DNA from: Bacteroidota bacterium
GTDB lineage: Bacteria; Bacteroidota; Bacteroidia; 2-12-FULL-35-15
DNA: 64,000 bases
Reading direction: 5' to 3'
NCBI GenBank assembly: GCA_025363555.1
Contig: JANYDQ010000157.1
Location: forward strand, 2,247-66,246
A model generated the notes under the pieces. It was not told the DNA's origin, ran no database searches, and saw only the letters and a list, made by a program, of their open reading frames with translations. This document shows positions 1 through 61,144 of the stretch, piece after piece (position 1 is the stretch's first letter; every line of letters begins with the position of its first letter). The translations under genes were made by a program, and so were the position numbers.

Positions 1-290
1 TTGTACCGGGTTCGGCTGATGAATTAAATCCGGAATTAGAAAAAGCCGGCAGAGTAGCTGATTTCCTTGAGTTGGGAGAATTGATGTGCATGGATGCCTT
101 GAACAGGAATGAAAGTTGTGGAGGGCATTTCCGTGAAGAATCGCAAACGGAAGATGGTGAAGCAAAACGTGATGATGATAATTATTCTTATGTAGCAGCA
201 TGGGAAAATAAAGGAAATAATAATTATGAATTACATAAAGAAGAATTGGTTTTTGATGTTGTTCATCCGAGTCAAAGAAGTTATAAATAG
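1..290 (+). CDS. sdhA: Succinate dehydrogenase/fumarate reductase flavoprotein subunit, C-terminal fragment (5' end outside window)
   Basis: Frame continues to the window edge. The C-terminal motif '[32 protein letters not shown]' is typical of the FrdA/SdhA C-terminus. The Fe-S subunit gene follows. Confidence 0.8.
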
Positions 291-447
291 GCAATAGCGA
301 ATAGGCACTAGGCATTAGAAAAAGGAAAAAGCGAATAGCCAATAGGCAAAAGATTATAGACATTAAAAGATACTAAATGAAAAGCATAATATTACAACAT
401 GGCCCTATTTTCTATTGCCTATTGTCTATTGCCTATTCGCTATTGCC
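290..447. repeat. Heptamer-based repeat block upstream of the four-helix-bundle gene, including an 18-bp perfect inverted repeat
   Basis: GGCAATAGCGAATAGGCA at 290-307 is the exact reverse complement of TGCCTATTCGCTATTGCC at 430-447. CTATTNN units recur. Confidence 0.8.
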
Positions 448-460
448 TAATACCTAAAAG

Positions 461-850
461 ATGAGTGGCAAAATAAACACATACAAAGATTTAATTGTTT
501 GGCAAAAGTCAATAGTGCTTGTTACTGATATATATTCAATAACAAGAAATTTTCCGATGGAAGAAAAATTCGGATTGGTAAATCAATTAAATCGTGCTGT
601 TGTTTCTATTCCTACTAATATTGCTGAAGGATGGGGAAGAGAGTCTTCTAAAAACTATTTACAATTTTTAAGAATATCAAGAGGTTCGTTAATGGAAGTT
701 GAAACATTGATTCTGATTTCAAAAAACCTGAATTACATTAATGATGAACAGCACAAAATAATTACAAACGGAATTGAGGAAGTTGGTAAAATTCTACAAG
801 GACTAATTAAAAGTATACAACAAAAAATTAATATAACAGAAAACGCATAG
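461..850 (+). CDS. Four-helix-bundle protein (23S rRNA intervening-sequence protein / Avd-like family)
   Basis: 129 aa with the pattern 'YKDLIVWQKS...FP..EKFGLVNQL.RA.VSIP.NIAEG'. This matches the PF05635/TIGR02436 signature recalled from memory. The gene lies between sdhA and sdhB and is flanked by repeats. Confidence 0.8.
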   Translation: MSGKINTYKDLIVWQKSIVLVTDIYSITRNFPMEEKFGLVNQLNRAVVSIPTNIAEGWGRESSKNYLQFLRISRGSLMEVETLILISKNLNYINDEQHKIITNGIEEVGKILQGLIKSIQQKINITENA

Positions 851-864
851 CTATTTACTACTCG

Positions 865-883
865 CTATTGCCTATTCGCTATT
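865..883. repeat. 19-bp perfect direct repeat copy (CTATTGCCTATTCGCTATT), identical to 426-444
   Basis: Exact 19-mer present on both sides of the four-helix-bundle gene. Confidence 0.85.
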
Positions 884-895
884 AACTATTCGCTT

Positions 896-1648
896 ATGAA
901 CAATATGAATTTAACGCTGAAAGTCTGGCGACAAAAAAACGACAAAGCAACAGGTAAACTGGTTACTTACCCGGTAAAAGAGATTTCTCCGGATATGTCG
1001 TTCCTGGAAATGTTTGACGTTTTGAACGAACAACTAATCGTTAAAGGTGAAGAGCCGATTGCTTTTGACCACGATTGCCGTGAAGGCATTTGCGGTATGT
1101 GCAGTATGTTTATTAACGGGCAGCCGCACGGACCCAAACGAAATGTTACTACCTGCCAGTTGCACATGCGCTCGTTTAAGGATGGTGATACCATTGTAGT
1201 AGAACCTTGGAGAGCAGCTGCCTTTCCGGTGATAAAAGATTTAACTGTTGACCGTTCTGCCTTTGATAGAATTATTGCCAAAGGTGGTTTTATATCTGTA
1301 AACACAGGCAATGCACAGGATGCGAATAACATACCGATTCCGAAACCGGATGCGGATGCTTCGTTTAATGCTGCTGCCTGTATTGGTTGCGGGGCTTGTG
1401 TGGCTACCTGCAAAAATTCTTCGGCTATGTTATTTGTTGCTGCAAAAATTTCTCAATTGGCTCTTTTGCCGCAGGGGCAGGTGGAACGAATTGCCCGTGC
1501 AAAAAACATGGTGGCACAAATGGATGAAGAAGGATTTGGTAATTGTACTAATACGGGTGCCTGCGAAGTGAAATGCCCTAAGGGAATTTCATTGGAAAAT
1601 ATTGCAAGGATGAACAGGGAGTTTTATATGGCTAATATTAAGGAATAA
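896..1648 (+). CDS. sdhB: Succinate dehydrogenase/fumarate reductase iron-sulfur subunit
   Basis: Cys clusters '[16 protein letters not shown]', '[11 protein letters not shown]' and '[14 protein letters not shown]' typical of FrdB/SdhB. The start could alternatively be Met4 at 905 (MNLTLK...). Confidence 0.9.
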
Positions 1649-1741: not shown

Positions 1742-4700
1742 TTACTCCACAACAATTTTTCTGTTCACTGTTCCTTTTTCTGTTTGCAACTGCACAAAAT
1801 AAATTCCTTTTGCTTCCTTACTCAAATCAATTGTAGATTGTAAATTATTAATTTGAGATTGATAAACAACTTCTCCTAAAAGATTTACCACTTTCAGGCT
1901 TTGAACTTTAGACCTTGAACTATAAACCTGGAACTTTCCTGATGAAGGATTAGGATAAATACTAATTCCATCTTCCTCTTTATAATCTGCTACTCCTACA
2001 TTATGTGCAAGTGTATTCAAAGTGGCATTGGTTCTGACAGGAGCATTGAAATCAAAATAAATATCAGCAGTGTTTTTTATTTGTGTCAAATCAGGAAGAT
2101 TTGGTTTCAAATGTATAGTATATATTATTTCACCAACACTTGTAGGAAAAGAATACGGCAGGTTGATATTATTAAACATAAATTTAACTACTCCTGTTTC
2201 ACTTACTTCGGTGGTGAAAGCATGATTAGAATATACCGGATGAAGCGTAGCCAGGTTCAAATCACTGTCTAGTGTATCAATCAGGAATATATTCTGGGCA
2301 TTGTAATTTCCCGTATTTTGAAAGTGAATGGTATAGGTAAGTACTGAATCATTTTGAGAAATAAACCCTGCTTCTCCATCTCCTTTAGGCGAAACTTCTT
2401 TCACGTTAGGGTCCCATGAACCAACCACACTGGGATAATACGCAACAAGATTGTTCCATGGTGTATAATCTGTCAACCAGTTGGTCATTGGCGCTAAATA
2501 TACAGAAGTATCGTTATATTGAAGAGAAGTGCCTATGGGAATATTAGTTGGTACATTGTATTGAACAAAAAAATTTTGAGTACTTGCAGGTGTTAATGTA
2601 GGAAATCCGTTAATAATGCTGTACCAATCGGGGGCAAGAAGAGCATTTTGTTGAGTAAACAAACCAGATGATAAAGATGTTAATTGCAATTGTCCATCAC
2701 TTTTATAACCAAGCTGCACTGCCGATTCGGCAATAGTACCTTCATTTTTCACAATAATATTTTGCTGATAAGGATAACCGGGAACAGGCGGTGTTGGTAA
2801 ATAGGTATGGTAAATACTTATATCGTGAAGTGGATTAATTACATTGGCAATGTTATTCGTAATCACACAACCTGAACTTGCTATGGCAGATATGGAGATG
2901 GAATTGTTTTGACAAGCTGCCAGCGGATAATAATTTCCAACTATTTCGGAAAGGTTGTAATTTCCTGTTGGAGCAATAAAAGAGTAATTTCCATTTGCAT
3001 CGGTATAAGTATAACCTATTCCGGCAAGGTGTATCATTATGTTTTCTATTCCTGTTTCTCCTAAATCCAATGTACAGTTTGTATTTACATCATCGTACAC
3101 TGTTCCTGAAACGGTACAGTAACAGGAGTTATTACCGGCATTGTAGCTAACATAACAATTACTTGTTTGTGCGCAGCCAGCAGCATCGTGAACTGTTACC
3201 CAATAAGCTCCCGTTAAAAGCCCGGTGGCTGTGGCAGCGGTTGCTCCATTGCTCCAGTTATATGTATAAGGAGGAGTGCCCCCAATGGCGGTTACAGCAG
3301 CTATTCCATCGTTTGCAAAAATACAGCTTGCCGGAGTGGTACTGAAATTAAGCGATATGGGTGAAGAGGAATAGACACCTGTTTGTTTGGAAATGGAACA
3401 ACCCATATTATCGGTAATGGTACAGTTATAACTTCCCGGAACAAGACCTGAAATGGAAGCAGTGGTGGCTAATGTATTCCATGCATAAGTATAGGGTGGA
3501 GTGCCTGCGGTGATATTTATTCCTGCCATTCCATTTGGCTGCTGACATAAGGCATCGGTTTTATAAATAGTTCCGGTTATCACACTTACAGGAGGCACAT
3601 AGGTATTTCCTGTTCTTGCACACCCCGCTGCATCGGTTACATTAAAATAATAAAACCCGGGAGATAAACCGGTTGCGGTTATTCCTGTTTGAGCAGGGAA
3701 AGTATTCCACGTAATGGTGTATGGCAACGTACCACCGGCAGGTGTTAATGTGGCAGTGCCTGTTGGTGCGGTACACAAACTGGAAGTGGTGGTATAGGTT
3801 ACTGTTATGGGTGTGGTAATATTTAAATACGAATAGGAAGGATAACTGATGCAACCATTGGCATCAGTAACCGTTACAGTATAATACTGACCTCCCGAAA
3901 GATTGGAAATGGTTTGAGTGGTTTGTCCGTTGTCCCATAAATAAGAATAAGGCGGAACACCGCCTCCGCCAAAAGCAATAATGCTGCCATTGGTGGACAG
4001 GCAGGTGGCAGGAGTAACAACAGGATTAGCAGTAATGTTTATACTTTGGGACACATAGGTATATTGTGTAAAATAACATCCTTGTGCATCGGTTACTGTT
4101 AAACTATATTGCCCCATCGACAAACCGGATATGGATGAAGACGTAGCACCATTGCTCCAAAGGTAAGAATAAGGTGCAATTCCACCTGTTGGTGCTGTAG
4201 CCGTGGCAGTTCCATTGGTACAATTTGCAGGAGTTGAAGAAACTGTAAAATTAATGGGTGACTGGTAACCAACATAAATATTGAGACTATCATCAATTGA
4301 ACTGTAAGCACATCCATTAGCATCGGTTATCCAAACGGAATATTGTCCTCCCGGAACATTTGCGGGATTTCCTGCAGCGATAACGTTTGTCCCATAAGGG
4401 TCTTCCCACAGAACGGTATATGGAGGAGCCCCTCCAGCAATAACTGCTGTTGCTGTGCCTAATGCAGGACATATTGCAGGTGTTGTGTTTATGCTATATG
4501 TAAATGGAGGCTGACCAGCGAAGGAGTTAGATACACTATTAGCTCCACTGGAAGCAGTTATACCAACCATGCAACCACTATAACCAAATAAGGTGTCATT
4601 AACAGTATTTGAAGTATGAGAGAAGTATTGAGACCCTGCCGAAATCATAAAACTAATTGGTGGTGTTAGTCCGGTTGTGTGTATTTCAAGTATTCCATTA

Positions 4701-4801
4701 TGATTGCAAGGGGTTTGAAGCAAATTAAATGTCACAGTCTGTGCAGTTGCCCCCCAGCTTATTAAAGCAAGGAAGGTAATAATAGTAATTGATTTTTTCA
4801 T
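1742..4801 (-). CDS. T9SS cargo adhesin with multiple SprB repeats (C..PPY.Y.W.NG.T...I.GL..G.Y.V.VTDA.GC) and a T9SS C-terminal sorting domain
   Basis: Start chosen at the internal Met giving the signal peptide MKKSITIITFLALISWGATAQ (the ORF track extends to 4870). More than 6 SprB-type repeats are present. The C-terminus 'ISIYPNPSSGKF...GIYFVQL...KIVVE' is a T9SS sorting domain. Confidence 0.8.
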   Translation of the reverse strand: MKKSITIITFLALISWGATAQTVTFNLLQTPCNHNGILEIHTTGLTPPISFMISAGSQYFSHTSNTVNDTLFGYSGCMVGITASSGANSVSNSFAGQPPFTYSINTTPAICPALGTATAVIAGGAPPYTVLWEDPYGTNVIAAGNPANVPGGQYSVWITDANGCAYSSIDDSLNIYVGYQSPINFTVSSTPANCTNGTATATAPTGGIAPYSYLWSNGATSSSISGLSMGQYSLTVTDAQGCYFTQYTYVSQSINITANPVVTPATCLSTNGSIIAFGGGGVPPYSYLWDNGQTTQTISNLSGGQYYTVTVTDANGCISYPSYSYLNITTPITVTYTTTSSLCTAPTGTATLTPAGGTLPYTITWNTFPAQTGITATGLSPGFYYFNVTDAAGCARTGNTYVPPVSVITGTIYKTDALCQQPNGMAGINITAGTPPYTYAWNTLATTASISGLVPGSYNCTITDNMGCSISKQTGVYSSSPISLNFSTTPASCIFANDGIAAVTAIGGTPPYTYNWSNGATAATATGLLTGAYWVTVHDAAGCAQTSNCYVSYNAGNNSCYCTVSGTVYDDVNTNCTLDLGETGIENIMIHLAGIGYTYTDANGNYSFIAPTGNYNLSEIVGNYYPLAACQNNSISISAIASSGCVITNNIANVINPLHDISIYHTYLPTPPVPGYPYQQNIIVKNEGTIAESAVQLGYKSDGQLQLTSLSSGLFTQQNALLAPDWYSIINGFPTLTPASTQNFFVQYNVPTNIPIGTSLQYNDTSVYLAPMTNWLTDYTPWNNLVAYYPSVVGSWDPNVKEVSPKGDGEAGFISQNDSVLTYTIHFQNTGNYNAQNIFLIDTLDSDLNLATLHPVYSNHAFTTEVSETGVVKFMFNNINLPYSFPTSVGEIIYTIHLKPNLPDLTQIKNTADIYFDFNAPVRTNATLNTLAHNVGVADYKEEDGISIYPNPSSGKFQVYSSRSKVQSLKVVNLLGEVVYQSQINNLQSTIDLSKEAKGIYFVQLQTEKGTVNRKIVVE

Positions 4802-5001
4802 GTTGATTGATTTTAGATTGCCATGTTGAATTATTTTGATTTTTAATCTCCTCAGAAAACAAAGGCTCAATTCTGCGAGGTTAAAGTTATATATATATTA
4901 CTGTAAAAATGGAAAAGGTTGCCTGGGTTTTGAAAATAAATTTTAATTCCATTGTTTATAAATCTCTTTTTTTTTCTCTTATAATTCTTATTCAGGCTGT
5001 T

Positions 5002-7755
5002 CTACCTCTGCAAAACTACTTTTTTTGTTCTTTTTATATTTTCTCCGGTTAGTTTAATAAAATACATTCCAGCACTTTTGTCAAATAAATCAATAATGGT
5101 AGAACTAGTGACTGCTGTTGTTTTGTAAACTAATTCACCGATTAAAGAATAAACCGTTATTTCCATTTTTTCATTGGTTTTGGCAATTTCAACAGTAATA
5201 ATTCCTGTTGACAGGCTTGGATAAATTTTTATTGCATTATCATTTTCAAGAGATTCTGTATTTAAAACTAAATAGTCAGGATATAAAACAAATGGAACTT
5301 CGGTGCTGTTTGCACAATTTACAGTAACAAAAGGTGCTGTGGCATTGTTCAGCCCGAATTTATCCACCCAAACAGAATAAGTATATGGCAACAGGTTGGT
5401 AATTTGAAAACTACCATCAGCGGCAGAAATGGCTTCTGCAGCAGGGCTGCCATTGTACATAAGTATTACGCGTATGCCCGAAGTGGTTTCGGTAGTACTA
5501 ACTATTTTACCGTTTAAAGTACACGAACCTATTGTATTTACCGCATTACGAAGGTGGATTTGAGTTGAATAATTTCCGTTTGCAATAATATGAAAAGGCA
5601 CAGCATTTTGTATAACCAATGTGGAATCGGGATAAGAAGAGATTTGACCCTGGTAATTTCCTGCACAAATATTTGCTTCAAAATAATAGCTGCCGCTATC
5701 GTTGGTGTAAAACGTAAAATTTCCAAGATTATCAGTAGTTACGCTGCCAACGGTAGTAACATCTGTAGCAGTGCTGTTAAGTTGGTAAACATCCACCTCA
5801 ACACAGGATACAGTTGAATTGTTCGATTTATTTACATTGCCTTCCACTATTATAGAATTGTTATTACAACCCACAATATCTGCTGAAGTAATTCCACCAT
5901 CGGCAGCTATCCATAGTTTGCAATGATTGTCCACCATAATATTTTCCACATCACTGTTATATAATGGAGAATTAAGAGCTGTGTAAACATTCCAGACACC
6001 AGCTTTCAAAGAAGCCAAACCTTCCATTGTACAAAACCAAAGTGTACCATCAGTTGTATATAAAACACTTTCGGCACGATTGCTTGGTATGGGTGAATTT
6101 CCGGTGGTATATACCAACCAGTTTCCGTTCCAGTAGCGGGCAAATCCGCTGCGGGTTGAAAACCACATTGCATTTGAATTCCCCTGGCGGTCAATGTGAA
6201 TAATGGAATCATCAGGCAATGGAGAGTTGGAATTGTTAAATGAAGTAAAGTTTCCACTGGTATCCATCATAAACACACCAATTCCATTACCTCCAAACAT
6301 GGCATCCGTTCCGCCTGTCCATATATTTCCGGTCGAATCTATATTTAAAAATCTTGGGTAATAGCTCACTCCGGGAGCAAAGAAGTTAAAAGGACCCATG
6401 TAGTTATCAATATATTGGTCTATTTCTGACATAGCCCCAAACCAGTAATTGTGATTCTGGGAAATAGCAAATTCAGTTAGTTGATTGCTGAAAAAATTAA
6501 GGGTATCGAAATAGTTAAAAGAGGTTCCGTTTACCATTTGCGCGGCTCCGCCTTGTGTACAAAAAGTAATGGTATGAGCGGTATCCTGGCGGATGCAATT
6601 TATGTAATCGTGCACATAAACAGGAGTGCTCCAGGTTCCGTTATACTTTACCATAGCGCCCGAAGTTTCGTCTGAACCAAACCACAGATTTCCCTGGTTA
6701 TCTTTTAATGTTGCATAAAAATAATTTCCGGGTAAAGTGGCGTGAATATCTGTGAATGGAGAAATAGAAAAAACAGCTGTATTCACTACATATTGGGTTA
6801 CCAATAAATTGGCATCGGTAAATGAAATTAAGAATGTAGTGGCTGATAAATTATTTTCAAGAGTCATGGTTGCTGAACTAGCCCCTGCTGGCAGACTTGA
6901 ATAATAGTCATAAAAAATGTTTCCATCGTATTTGCAAAAAATACCATCACCACCCAGCCATATATTCCCGGTGTTGTCATAAAATATTTTTGGCGTATGA
7001 TAAGACACGCTATGATTCATTGTAGCAGGAATTATGGTGTCAATCCAGTTGCCAGTTGCACTTTTAAAGGTATGAATTACGGAATCGTTGGAATTGATAA
7101 ATGTGAAATCACTGGAAGGACTTGTGCTGTAAGCAGTCATAGAAATAATGTGATGAAAGTAAGAAGTATCATATTCCGCCCATGTTCCGCCATGAAACAC
7201 ATCTACTTTATTATATTCCCCAAAAAATATATCATCGTTGGGAGTTATAACAGTAACACCGTTGAGAGGGTATGGCAAAGTTGAATTTGACGAATCGTAA
7301 GAGGTAAGAACACTGCCATCCCATTTTTTTAACGAAGGAAAATTACTTACAGAAAAAAAAGTGCTTCCACCTTTATAAGGAACAAAATAAGTTGAAGATG
7401 TACTGAACCCCTGGTAGGTAGCAAGAGGGGCAATGGTAGTACCATCGTAACTATAAGTTGTTCCTGCACCTTCCACTAGTACCGAATATCCGGGTCCCTG
7501 TCTTATCCCTCCCATTGTACCGGAGAAATGAGGGTTGAGATACCGTATATCGGCAGGCATGGGAGTGTTGGTGATAGCGAGTGAATTTTTATCCACCTGG
7601 ATAAGTTCACCGGGAACACATGCAACCACTGATGTTCCTAAGTCAAATTGATACTGAGGCATAGCATAATAATGTTCCCAGTTTACTAAACCTTGCGAGT
7701 AACCTGCTATTGCAAGTACTGAAAGAAGTCCGAAAATTGCAATTATTTTTTTCAT
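5002..7755 (-). CDS. T9SS cargo protein with two-component-regulator-propeller-like repeats
   Basis: Signal peptide MKKIIAIFGLLSVLAIAGYSQ. Repeated 'GN(I/L)W.G.D.G' propeller motifs. C-terminus 'KIYPSLSTGIITVE...GMYFIKL...KKVVLQR' is a T9SS sorting domain. Confidence 0.7.
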   Translation of the reverse strand: MKKIIAIFGLLSVLAIAGYSQGLVNWEHYYAMPQYQFDLGTSVVACVPGELIQVDKNSLAITNTPMPADIRYLNPHFSGTMGGIRQGPGYSVLVEGAGTTYSYDGTTIAPLATYQGFSTSSTYFVPYKGGSTFFSVSNFPSLKKWDGSVLTSYDSSNSTLPYPLNGVTVITPNDDIFFGEYNKVDVFHGGTWAEYDTSYFHHIISMTAYSTSPSSDFTFINSNDSVIHTFKSATGNWIDTIIPATMNHSVSYHTPKIFYDNTGNIWLGGDGIFCKYDGNIFYDYYSSLPAGASSATMTLENNLSATTFLISFTDANLLVTQYVVNTAVFSISPFTDIHATLPGNYFYATLKDNQGNLWFGSDETSGAMVKYNGTWSTPVYVHDYINCIRQDTAHTITFCTQGGAAQMVNGTSFNYFDTLNFFSNQLTEFAISQNHNYWFGAMSEIDQYIDNYMGPFNFFAPGVSYYPRFLNIDSTGNIWTGGTDAMFGGNGIGVFMMDTSGNFTSFNNSNSPLPDDSIIHIDRQGNSNAMWFSTRSGFARYWNGNWLVYTTGNSPIPSNRAESVLYTTDGTLWFCTMEGLASLKAGVWNVYTALNSPLYNSDVENIMVDNHCKLWIAADGGITSADIVGCNNNSIIVEGNVNKSNNSTVSCVEVDVYQLNSTATDVTTVGSVTTDNLGNFTFYTNDSGSYYFEANICAGNYQGQISSYPDSTLVIQNAVPFHIIANGNYSTQIHLRNAVNTIGSCTLNGKIVSTTETTSGIRVILMYNGSPAAEAISAADGSFQITNLLPYTYSVWVDKFGLNNATAPFVTVNCANSTEVPFVLYPDYLVLNTESLENDNAIKIYPSLSTGIITVEIAKTNEKMEITVYSLIGELVYKTTAVTSSTIIDLFDKSAGMYFIKLTGENIKRTKKVVLQR

Positions 7756-17117: not shown

Positions 17118-17306
17118 GCAAAAGTTTCCCATAGCAAAGGGAAAGTTTCCCATAGCAAAGGGAAAGTTTCCCATAACAAAGGGAAAGTTTTACTTAGCAA
17201 AGGGAAAGTTTTACTTAGCAAAGGGAAAGTTTCCCATAACAAATGGAAAGTTTCCCATAACAAAGGGAAGGTTTCCCATAACAAAGGGAAAGTCTCGGGT
17301 ACTAAA
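17118..17306. repeat. Tandem array of ~8.5 copies of a 21-bp unit GGGAAAGTTTCCCATA(A/G)CAAA containing the palindrome GGGAAAnTTTCCC
   Basis: Copies start at 17139, 17160, 17181, 17202, 17223, 17244 and 17265 (each 21 bp), with a degenerate copy at 17286. Copies 3-4 are the variant GGGAAAGTTTTACTTAGCAAA. The array lies in a 720-bp divergent intergenic region. Confidence 0.9.
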
Positions 17307-17492: not shown

Positions 17493-17500
17493 TACCTTTG
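17493..17500 (+). promoter_or_regulatory. Bacteroidota-type -7 box TACCTTTG (TAnnTTTG) abutting the start of the HYC_CC_PP-like gene
   Basis: Exact match to the TAnnTTTG consensus. The start codons GTG/ATG/ATG lie at 17500-17508, implying a leaderless or near-leaderless transcript. Confidence 0.45.
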
Positions 17501-17901
17501 TGATGATGAAGAAAATAGTTTCTGTATTTCTTGCTTTTATATTTGGCTTATCTGCTATGGGTATGGAGGTAACTATGCACCATTGCAAGGGTGAAACTTC
17601 TTATATTGTATTTGGAATTGATTTTAATAAGCATTGTAAATGCAAACACGAAAACAGAAAACACAATAAAAACTGTTGTGATAGAAAAAGTATTTTCGTA
17701 AAAACGGTTGGAGACAGTTTCTCCAATACAACTAAGGTAGTTTCGTTCAATAAAATTTGTTTGAATCCATTTTTAGTTTCTGAAGGTTTTTTAACAAAAT
17801 TTTGTAGTTATAAAAATTACAATTCTGCTTCTTACATTTCTAAAGTCCCTCCTGACAGGGGCATTCCTCTTAATACGCTCAACTGCGTTTCCCGAATATA
17901 A
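17500..17901 (+). CDS. Small secreted Cys/His-rich protein, HYC_CC_PP-like (motifs MHHC, CC, PP)
   Basis: Signal peptide MMMKKIVSVFLAFIFGLSAMG, then 'MHHCKGE', 'KNCCDRK' and 'VPPDRG'. The true start may be the ATG at 17503 or 17506. Confidence 0.6.
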   Translation: MMMKKIVSVFLAFIFGLSAMGMEVTMHHCKGETSYIVFGIDFNKHCKCKHENRKHNKNCCDRKSIFVKTVGDSFSNTTKVVSFNKICLNPFLVSEGFLTKFCSYKNYNSASYISKVPPDRGIPLNTLNCVSRI

Positions 17902-60442: not shown

Positions 60443-61144
60443 ATGCCACTCATACTTAACCTTGAAACAGCAACCACCGCATGTAGTGTTTCATTATCAA
60501 AAGATGGCGAACTGTTAGGTTTAAAAGAAATTAATGGCGATTATTCTCATGCCGAAAACCTTACTGTGTTTATTGAAGATGTTTTTAAGCAAGCAAATTT
60601 AAAGCTGCAAGATGTGGATGCAATAGCCGTAAGCCAAGGTCCCGGCTCTTATACCGGATTACGAATTGGAGTCAGCACCGCCAAGGGTTTATGTTATTCG
60701 TTAGACAAACCATTGATTGCAGTAGATACCTTACAACATATCGCTCTTTCTGTAATAACAAATCTCAAATCCCAAATCTTAAATCTCAATACTCTATTTT
60801 GTCCGATGCTGGATGCAAGAAGAATGGAAGTATATTGTGCAATATATGATATTAATATTAATTGTGTAATGCAAACTTCTGCATTAATTATTGATGAAAA
60901 TTCTTTTGCTGATACTCTAAAAGAAAACACTATTTATTTATTTGGCGATGGTGCCGCAAAATGCAGGGAAGTTTTATCTGCCAATAAAAATGTATTCTTC
61001 ATGGACGATATCTTCCCTTCTGCAAAAAACATGATTACCCTTTCTGAAAAGGCTTATAATAATAAGCAATTTGAGGATGTAGCCTATTTCGAACCCTTTT
61101 ACCTGAAAGATTTTCTGATTGGAAAAAAGAAAGCAGAAAAATAA
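60443..61144 (+). CDS. tsaB: tRNA threonylcarbamoyladenosine biosynthesis protein TsaB
   Basis: YeaZ-type 'AVSQGPGSYTGLRIG' motif. 233 aa. Confidence 0.85.
   Translation: MPLILNLETATTACSVSLSKDGELLGLKEINGDYSHAENLTVFIEDVFKQANLKLQDVDAIAVSQGPGSYTGLRIGVSTAKGLCYSLDKPLIAVDTLQHIALSVITNLKSQILNLNTLFCPMLDARRMEVYCAIYDININCVMQTSALIIDENSFADTLKENTIYLFGDGAAKCREVLSANKNVFFMDDIFPSAKNMITLSEKAYNNKQFEDVAYFEPFYLKDFLIGKKKAEK

Follow-up and report, generated by a model that had tools for sequence, protein, structure and literature searches.

A PF05635 gene between inverted heptamer arrays at the sdhA-sdhB junction of a Bacteroidota bacterium and its likeness to 23S rRNA intervening sequences

The founding members of the PF05635 protein family are open reading frames (ORFs) inside intervening sequences (IVSs) of 23S rRNA. 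In the Coxiella IVS, the termini around a PF05635-family ORF form a 28-bp stem that is cut by RNase III, and the ATG is directly preceded by two to three heptamers (GACAGAT) whose number varies between strains, with the 5' cut at the first repeat (PMC4990558). Repeats of 7 bp are also known from cyanobacteria as short tandemly repeated repetitive (STRR) sequences, which form hairpins between operon genes such as hupS and hupL and are of unknown function (PMC2670836), and in a survey of 7,006 genomes no periodic repeat of prokaryotic intergenic DNA was more abundant than tandem heptamers, for whose role there was ‘no clear clue’ (10.1101/309039). Here we analyse a PF05635 gene that lies between sdhA and sdhB, the genes for the flavoprotein and iron-sulfur subunits of succinate dehydrogenase/fumarate reductase, in a stretch of 64,000 nt from a Bacteroidota bacterium (contig JANYDQ010000157.1, positions 2,247 to 66,246; henceforth referred to as the window). 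On balance, we read this insert as an IVS-type PF05635 cassette residing in an mRNA operon, although it stands outside the class of rRNA IVSs in the strict sense, since it is not in rRNA. The main importance of the locus lies in the link between PF05635 genes and heptamer repeats to which it leads, and not in the sdh copy itself.

As we read it, the cassette belongs to a very large and widespread class whose compact members each consist of a PF05635 gene between mutually complementary degenerate heptamer arrays, purine-rich upstream and pyrimidine-rich downstream, a layout that ORF-carrying 23S rRNA IVSs share, with complementary ends that form the RNase III-cut stem. The likeness to the IVSs of Coxiella burnetii and Leptospira (with their S23p ORF) extends from the protein family to the position of the ORF between complementary termini with a potential stem of 20–28 bp, to tandem purine-rich heptamers of strain-variable copy number just upstream of the ATG, to insertion into a transcription unit that is conserved and highly expressed and that the insertion does not destroy, and to the occurrence of gene-less short versions at the same kind of site. 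In contrast to the rRNA IVSs, the window's cassette is hosted by the sdhCAB mRNA operon and not by an rRNA helix (no rRNA match), its arms are long arrays of many heptamers, its ORF is under purifying selection whereas that of Coxiella is decaying, and in the window's strain the predicted fold is altered by an additional array; RNase III cleavage, which is established for the rRNA IVSs, is something we infer for the sdh cassette. The likeness to STRRs lies in the tandem 7-nt units, which are arranged as inverted arrays and make hairpins between genes of one operon; the gene-less hairpins at the sdhA-sdhB junction of Pedobacter and Flavobacterium look alike, and PF05635 genes of Nostoc are flanked by STRR-type arrays. 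However, STRRs are described as non-coding and, in searchable papers, not as brackets of a specific gene family, and the window's units are AATAG/CTATT rather than STRR1-3, in a Bacteroidota and not a cyanobacterial host.

The cassette and its orthologues

The product of the inserted gene matches PF05635 with an E-value of 2.3e-39 and 134 bits (cut-off 33.8), TIGR02436 with 127 bits (cut-off 24) and NF008911 with 145 bits (cut-off 137), as anticipated by an earlier note on this DNA, made from the letters alone, which had placed a gene of this family between sdhA and sdhB. An AlphaFold (AF2) model of the protein has four helices with a pLDDT of 97, and Foldseek superimposes this predicted fold on XCC0516 (2GSC) with a root-mean-square deviation of 0.6 Å and TM scores of 0.86/0.94 (phmmer E-value of the same pair, 2.5e-21). 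BT_0352 (2RLD) is also matched and, more distantly, so is Avd, a protein of diversity-generating retroelements (DGRs; 4DWL and 8UBE), with TM scores of 0.75/0.90 and 12% identity. The solved relatives 2GSC and 2RLD have five chains each. The RxxxSxxxNxxE(G) motif described for the family (PMC3936711) is present, its residues R45, S49, N53, E56 and G57 being invariant or nearly so in our alignment. In comparisons among the window and its orthologues L004, L007 and L009 (synonymous divergence, dS, from 0.56 to saturation) the ratio of nonsynonymous to synonymous change (dN/dS) was 0.05–0.12 for the inserted gene and 0.03–0.08 for sdhB over the same pairs. The protein is under purifying selection, with a dN/dS of about 0.1, and the term ‘non-autonomous’ used in the earlier note does not suit an intact ORF under such selection. 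In the window's clade the gene is both old and functional.

The features of the locus are collected in Table 1. The 19-mer CTATTGCCTATTCGCTATT occurs exactly at 426–444 and 865–883, as the earlier note had it, and allowing up to three mismatches yields 8 matches against 0.01 expected, every one at the sdhA-sdhB locus. The reported build of the arms from CTATTNN heptamers likewise holds: CTATTNNCTATTNNCTATT with up to two mismatches has 17 matches against 0.35 expected, all within 286–897, and Tandem Repeats Finder (TRF) reports arrays of period 7/14 at 404–449 and 850–894. An 18-bp inverted copy had been noted at 290–307 and 430–447; it is real but longer, with 20 bp of perfect pairing (288–307/430–449) within 42-nt arms (288–329/408–449) that are 83% complementary. 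Neither a further CTATT array nor a second PF05635 gene was found elsewhere in the 64-kb window.

Table 1. Features of the sdhA-sdhB junction in the window (positions are those of the window).
Feature	Position	Strand	Remarks
sdhA/frdA flavoprotein gene, 3' end	1..290	+	PF02910, E 7.9e-24; stop TAG at 288-290 within the first AATAG unit
Array A, 5' arm	286..359	+	about 10 degenerate purine-rich AATAGNN heptamers, overlapping the sdhA stop
Predicted A:B RNA hairpin	288..450	+	20 uninterrupted bp and additional pairs
Loop between arrays A and B	360..403	+	44 nt, specific to the window's strain
Array B	404..451	+	about 7 CTATTNN heptamers complementary to A; strain-specific addition; holds the first 19-mer (426-444)
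PF05635/TIGR02436 four-helix-bundle gene, ‘23S rRNA intervening sequence protein’	461..850	+	129 aa
Array C, ancestral 3' arm complementary to A	851..897	+	about 6 CTATTNN heptamers; holds the second 19-mer (865-883); runs into the sdhB ATG
sdhB/frdB iron-sulfur subunit gene	896..1648	+	PF13085, PF13183

We compared the window with contigs carrying an identical protein and with five close homologues (97, 92, 91, 81 and 77% identity). Wherever a contig includes both flanks, the gene lies between sdhA and sdhB, and in L003 and L173, where the upstream side is cut off on the contig, the gene is followed by sdhB. The order is that of an AATAG-type array, the gene and a CTATT-type array: a counterpart of array A was found in all orthologues, with 3–8 units each, and array C is conserved. 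In the window's clade of uncultured Bacteroidota (a host context indicated by the sdhB relatives and by Por_Secre_tail neighbours) the cassette fills precisely the interval from the sdhA stop to the sdhB start, and within this clade it has been inherited vertically. Array B and the loop before it stand apart from this conserved architecture, which is one of inverted heptamer arrays around the gene. In L172, the nearest relative (protein 97% identical), the sdhA stop is separated from the ATG by only 20 nt, with three AATAG units and with neither loop nor array B, and the 19-mer occurs only once, as the array C copy. Array B is also missing in the orthologues of 77–91% identity, and the 44-nt loop is absent in L172, L004, L007 and L009; a blastn search with the loop matched only L001/L002 and nothing elsewhere in the window or in 181 loci. 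In L002, a second sample of the window's strain, array B is two heptamers shorter, so that array size, which ranges from 3 to 10 units across close relatives, differs by two units within a strain. Array B and the loop are a recent novelty of the lineage of the window's strain. The 19-bp direct repeat exists because arrays B and C are both made of alternating CTATTGC/CTATTCG units, and, since L172 and others are without B and the length of B varies within a strain, the repeat is a by-product of the recent extra array and not a boundary of the cassette. We also considered the loop and B as the leftover of a duplicated gene 3' end plus C, but similarity in the alignment is confined to the arrays; the sequence before B is unlike the gene's 3' end, and a tandem duplication of the cassette is therefore unsupported.

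The arrays are predicted to pair strongly. The A:B hairpin has a predicted free energy of -58.3 kcal/mol (z -7.1, with a range from -7 to -9), and the duplex of A and B alone one of -58.8 kcal/mol, with none of 300 shuffles as good; the A:C duplex in the window is predicted at -36.5 kcal/mol (z -4.9). In the orthologues the duplex between upstream and downstream spacers is predicted at -27 to -34 kcal/mol (z from -3.9 to -6.5), with none of 300 shuffles as good in every one, and in L004 a 21-bp stem encloses the whole ORF in both the minimum free energy (MFE) and the centroid structure. In the window the MFE structure has A:B and the centroid still A:C. The stem-loop proposed by the earlier note is thus predicted, at roughly 160 nt rather than about 120 nt. 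Its suggestion that the insert must be tolerated by transcription agrees with the prediction of no intrinsic terminator within the insert. A scan for sigma-70 promoters, whose model is not one of Bacteroidota promoters, found nothing above background within the insert. Lacking both a predicted terminator and a conspicuous promoter-like signal, the cassette is most likely co-transcribed with the sdh operon. A search of Rfam gave no matching family, only sub-threshold matches to generic hairpins (miRNA precursor).

Heptamer arrays around PF05635 genes and at sdhA-sdhB junctions

The PF05635 family comprises 22,943 clusters at 50% identity (E-value up to 1e-3). To survey its surroundings we used 80 metagenomic loci of diverse members that are 39–59% identical to the window protein, with 59 genes having both flanks and 106 other genes from the same loci serving as controls; as these loci were picked by one peptide pattern and ordered by their likeness to the window protein, they cover only part of the family. 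At least one of the two 100-nt flanks had a 7- or 8-nt periodic array in 45/59 PF05635 genes (76%) compared with 7.5% of controls, and both flanks had one in 20/59 (34%) compared with 0.9%. Complementarity between upstream and downstream flanks exceeded a score of 9, the 95th percentile of mismatched flank pairs, in 64% of PF05635 genes and 3.8% of controls. The upstream arm was the purine-rich one in 33 of 38 cases, whereas the units themselves varied widely across loci (GGCAAGA, GGGGTCA, GTGAGTG, GTTACAA and others). Gene-less arrays elsewhere in a locus shared their unit with the PF05635-flanking arrays in 25 of 56 cases, compared with 1.2% across loci. These frequencies point to inverted heptamer arrays around the gene as a feature of the PF05635 family at large. 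Gene and repeats co-occur far above chance, which links a large protein family of unknown function to ubiquitous repeats. Full-text searchable papers, which do not take in paywalled work, contained no general link between PF05635 and inverted heptamer arrays, and the association, which is strong, is apparently undescribed.

The same layout was found in other settings. Nostoc plasmid genes annotated as ‘four helix bundle protein’ or ‘S23 ribosomal protein’ are flanked by STRR-type arrays (CAGGAGT, TAGGGAG) whose copy number differs among homologous plasmids, and in homologous plasmid operons the gene lies at different junctions with different units. Where filled and empty Nostoc junctions could be compared, the cassette exactly replaces a spacer of 3–4 nt, with no target-site duplication. 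On viral contigs, arrays accompany 22 of 30 PF05635 copies, and copies also occur on conjugative plasmids. Of 15 metagenomic loci that lack coding neighbours, none had its copy embedded in rRNA; in one, L100 (187–906), the cassette has AGTCGTT/AACGACT arrays and a tRNA gene on either side. A PF05635 gene between cas genes has been reported (PMC3936711). The layout of rRNA IVSs recurs inside protein-coding operons, tRNA clusters and plasmids, and annotators should be aware that PF05635 genes can split sdh, nrd and cas operons without being functional members of them. One idea that we rejected was that the heptamers serve to close every reading frame (7 mod 3 = 1): the 50 nt upstream hold 2.98 stop triplets compared with 2.99 after shuffling, and all three frames are closed in 32% compared with 23%. 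Separately, five proteins (P0138, P0152, P0210, P0214 and P0221) are called with N-terminal extensions of 35–85 residues before the PF05635 domain, which may come from gene callers reading through stop-free upstream heptamer arrays.

A survey of the sdhA-sdhB junction across Bacteroidota, made by scanning for SdhB in one genome per species, returned 80 loci, 78 of which include both genes. The spacer is shorter than 50 nt in 38/78 (with some TAATG overlaps), which agrees with the earlier note in showing the gene to be an insert relative to most relatives. A PF05635 gene is present in 7/78, a gene-less hairpin of inverted 7- or 8-nt arrays in 14/78 (strict criteria, at least 14), another hairpin in 6/78, and 13/78 have other spacers of at least 50 nt. 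The units of the gene-less hairpins are lineage-specific, namely GACTTTC in Flavobacterium, CTCAATA or CTTGATA in Pedobacter and GATTCTT in Mucilaginibacter; gene-less heptamer hairpins are also found at this junction in Tenacibaculum. The junction PF05635 proteins form two clades that are 31–43% identical to each other, neither of which tracks host relationships, and each occupant has its own repeat unit, always purine-rich upstream and complementary downstream. Two Capnocytophaga loci, L081 (5494–6001) and L091 (250–701), have SdhB proteins that are 99% identical and flanking DNA that is about 90% identical, but their PF05635 proteins are only 61% identical and their units unrelated (AATAGAA and GTGATTA), a contrast that suggests cassette replacement. 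In an uncultured Bacteroidetes (L050, 3440–4011, CAADHD010000029.1) the PF05635 gene is instead at the sdhC-sdhA junction, with GTAGAAA-type units upstream and CTTTCTA units adjoining the sdhA ATG, and the sdhA-sdhB spacer is 13 nt. Overall, these comparisons show that the sdhA-sdhB junction is a hotspot with repeated gain or replacement rather than simple vertical descent, repeatedly occupied by unrelated cassette versions or by gene-less heptamer hairpins. In this respect the earlier note was correct in speaking of an insertion. Two further loci add detail on junction architecture: in Flavobacterium sp. 3HN19-14 (L060) a 1.6-kb insert between sdhA and sdhB (4375–6000) has three ORFs and no PF05635 gene, and a heptamer array (CTGTGAA/CCGTTAA) lies directly 3' of sdhB (6966–6994); in a metagenome-assembled genome of Flavobacteriales (L049, 5414–5514) an unusually long array of about 14 GTGAACA/GTAAACG units with a 28-nt super-period lies upstream of the PF05635 gene at this junction.

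Weighing the explanations

Under the IVS-type reading that we favour, the arrays would pair in the operon transcript and RNase III would cut the double-stranded stem and so separate the sdhA and sdhB parts of the transcript, both steps being modelled on homology with rRNA IVSs. In the relatives, the predicted pairing of arrays A and C places the ORF within a stem of about 20 bp, and in the window's strain the new array B with its 44-nt loop arose beside A, so that the predicted A:B hairpin there is local and stronger. Avd itself is a pentamer for which binding to an RNA stem-loop is reported (10.1101/2023.10.23.563531). By analogy with Avd, the PF05635 protein would be an Avd-like pentamer that binds structured nucleic acid, possibly the array stems, and the arrays presumably grow and shrink by slippage; how the cassette moves is a matter on which we infer rather than observe. 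Taken conservatively, the locus would be a well-characterised IVS-like insert, selfish or regulatory, that is tolerated in an essential respiratory operon.

Several results weigh against this reading. Because A:B outcompetes A:C in the predicted fold of the window, the window's own ORF is probably not enclosed by a stem. Mismatches between the arms have no sense-strand G.U bias (37 sense-compatible and 48 antisense-compatible, p = 0.28, with 92 transversions), and so give no proof that an RNA stem is under selection. In L092 and L127 each unit of an array departs from the partner arm at one and the same position, a pattern expected from homogenisation within an array and not from pairing-driven co-evolution. 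On a Nostoc edaphicum plasmid (L176, pNe_5, 259376–259744) a PF05635 gene with TAGGGAG/CTCCCTA arrays lies antisense between nrdB and nrdA, the genes for the beta and alpha subunits of ribonucleotide reductase. Some copies of Bacteroidota or phages, among them those at five viral-contig loci (L183, L195, L206, L211 and L213), have a TAnnTTTG-like box (for example TATCTTTGCG, TATTTTTGCA) that follows the 5' heptamer array, 30–60 nt before the ATG, and resembles the -7 promoter element of Bacteroidota; transcription of such copies may start within the cassette, in which case their own mRNA would lack the 5' arm. Finally, the co-orientation of PF05635 genes with their neighbours is ordinary (80% upstream, 67% downstream), which speaks against strict embedding in operons.

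Because of the missing G.U bias, the homogenisation within each arm, the TAnnTTTG boxes and the unremarkable orientation, a role of the arrays at the level of DNA remains a serious rival, albeit one that we hold to be less than probable. In that case the arrays would mark the ends of an element that is mobile or propagates itself, or would be bound as its sites, the PF05635 pentamer would be its dedicated factor, gene cassettes and gene-less hairpins would correspond to autonomous and non-autonomous forms (compare RAYT/REPIN, or transposons and miniature inverted-repeat transposable elements, MITEs), and the RNA stem would be a side-effect. Such a role would fit the filling of the junction by two unrelated PF05635 clades in scattered genera, the divergence of protein and units in the Capnocytophaga pair, the different junctions and exact spacer replacement in the Nostoc plasmid operons, the sharing of units between gene-less and PF05635-flanking arrays, and the copies on viral contigs and conjugative plasmids. 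Against it stand the absence of a catalytic domain from the PF05635 protein and of a transposase or recombinase next to the gene, the lack of a visible target-site duplication and of a second copy within the 64-kb window, and the stable vertical inheritance of the gene in the window's clade; the sharing of units within a genome could moreover reflect common descent or local slippage.

A related proposal, which we put forward tentatively, is that PF05635 proteins are the long-missing protein partner of prokaryotic STRR-type heptamer repeats. The gene would typically lie within a hairpin of inverted arrays whose genome-specific unit recurs in gene-less arrays nearby, and the pentameric, Avd-like protein would bind the arrays and create, maintain or spread them, as an autonomous/non-autonomous system comparable to RAYT/REPIN. 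If this were true, 23S rRNA IVSs, STRRs and sdhAB-type cassettes would be three faces of one element class. The comparison with REPIN/RAYT and with MITEs and their transposases is an analogy only: in both cases short, hairpin-forming, genome-specific repeats occur with and without a small gene, but neither nuclease nor transposase chemistry is known for PF05635, the arms of the cassette are tandem arrays and not unique inverted repeats, and no target duplication is seen.

We consider it improbable that the arrays are a feature of host regulation, that is, STRR-like stabilisers or decouplers of mRNA that set the SdhA:SdhB ratio, with the four-helix-bundle gene as a domesticated member of the operon. 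The idea draws on the gene-less heptamer hairpins at the junction in Pedobacter, Flavobacterium, Mucilaginibacter and Tenacibaculum, on the conservation and low dN/dS of the gene, and on the hupS-hupL STRR hairpins, which have been proposed to stabilise transcripts (PMC2670836). However, half of the junctions have almost no spacer, some with overlapping TAATG, so that the operon can do without such an element; close relatives differ in both units and occupants, which points to rapid turnover; and cassettes of this type are also present in settings that have nothing to do with sdh (tRNA clusters, nrd, cas, rRNA and plasmid operons).

Far less credible is the view of the earlier note that the insert is a non-autonomous cassette bounded by the 19-bp direct repeats as recombination sites or a target duplication. 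The exact 19-mers at both positions gave rise to it, but it is contradicted by L172 and L173, since the closest relatives have the gene with the downstream copy only, and it fits neither the change of array B by two units within a strain nor the sequence before B, while long exact matches are to be expected where both copies consist of the same alternating heptamers. The note had named as telling against itself a gene present at every related junction without repeat-defined boundaries; the relatives indeed share the gene and its junction but have no direct repeats to bound it, whereas most Bacteroidota junctions lack the gene.

That the gene is the Avd accessory gene of a DGR can be practically dismissed: the link drawn by the earlier note survives as distant homology (a homologous four-helix bundle with pentameric solved relatives, fold similarity to 4DWL, the binding of structured RNA by Avd, and weak matches to bAvd PF22296, 40.5 bits with a cut-off of 40, and to phrog_3206), but the gene is directly flanked by sdhA and sdhB with no adjacent reverse transcriptase, template repeat or variable repeat, identity to Avd is 12%, the NCBIfam Avd equivalog NF033474 scores 41 bits against a cut-off of 80, and PADLOC gives no hit. 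A link to defence systems was likewise set aside, PADLOC being without a hit.

Other repeats in the window

Two further tandem repeats lie in the window, away from the sdh locus. At 17121–17293, in a non-coding stretch upstream of an ORF without a Pfam match (17500–17901), there are 8 tandem copies of the 21-nt unit AAAGTTTCCCATAACAAAGGG with 91% matches, each containing the near-palindrome GGGAAAGTTTCCC, and the array looks like one of regulator binding sites. At 60758–60789, four to five heptamers (CAAATCT/CAAATCC/TAAATCT) lie inside a coding sequence of the TsaB/TsaD family (ORF 60443–61144, PF00814), where the run encodes ...ITNLKSQILNLNT...

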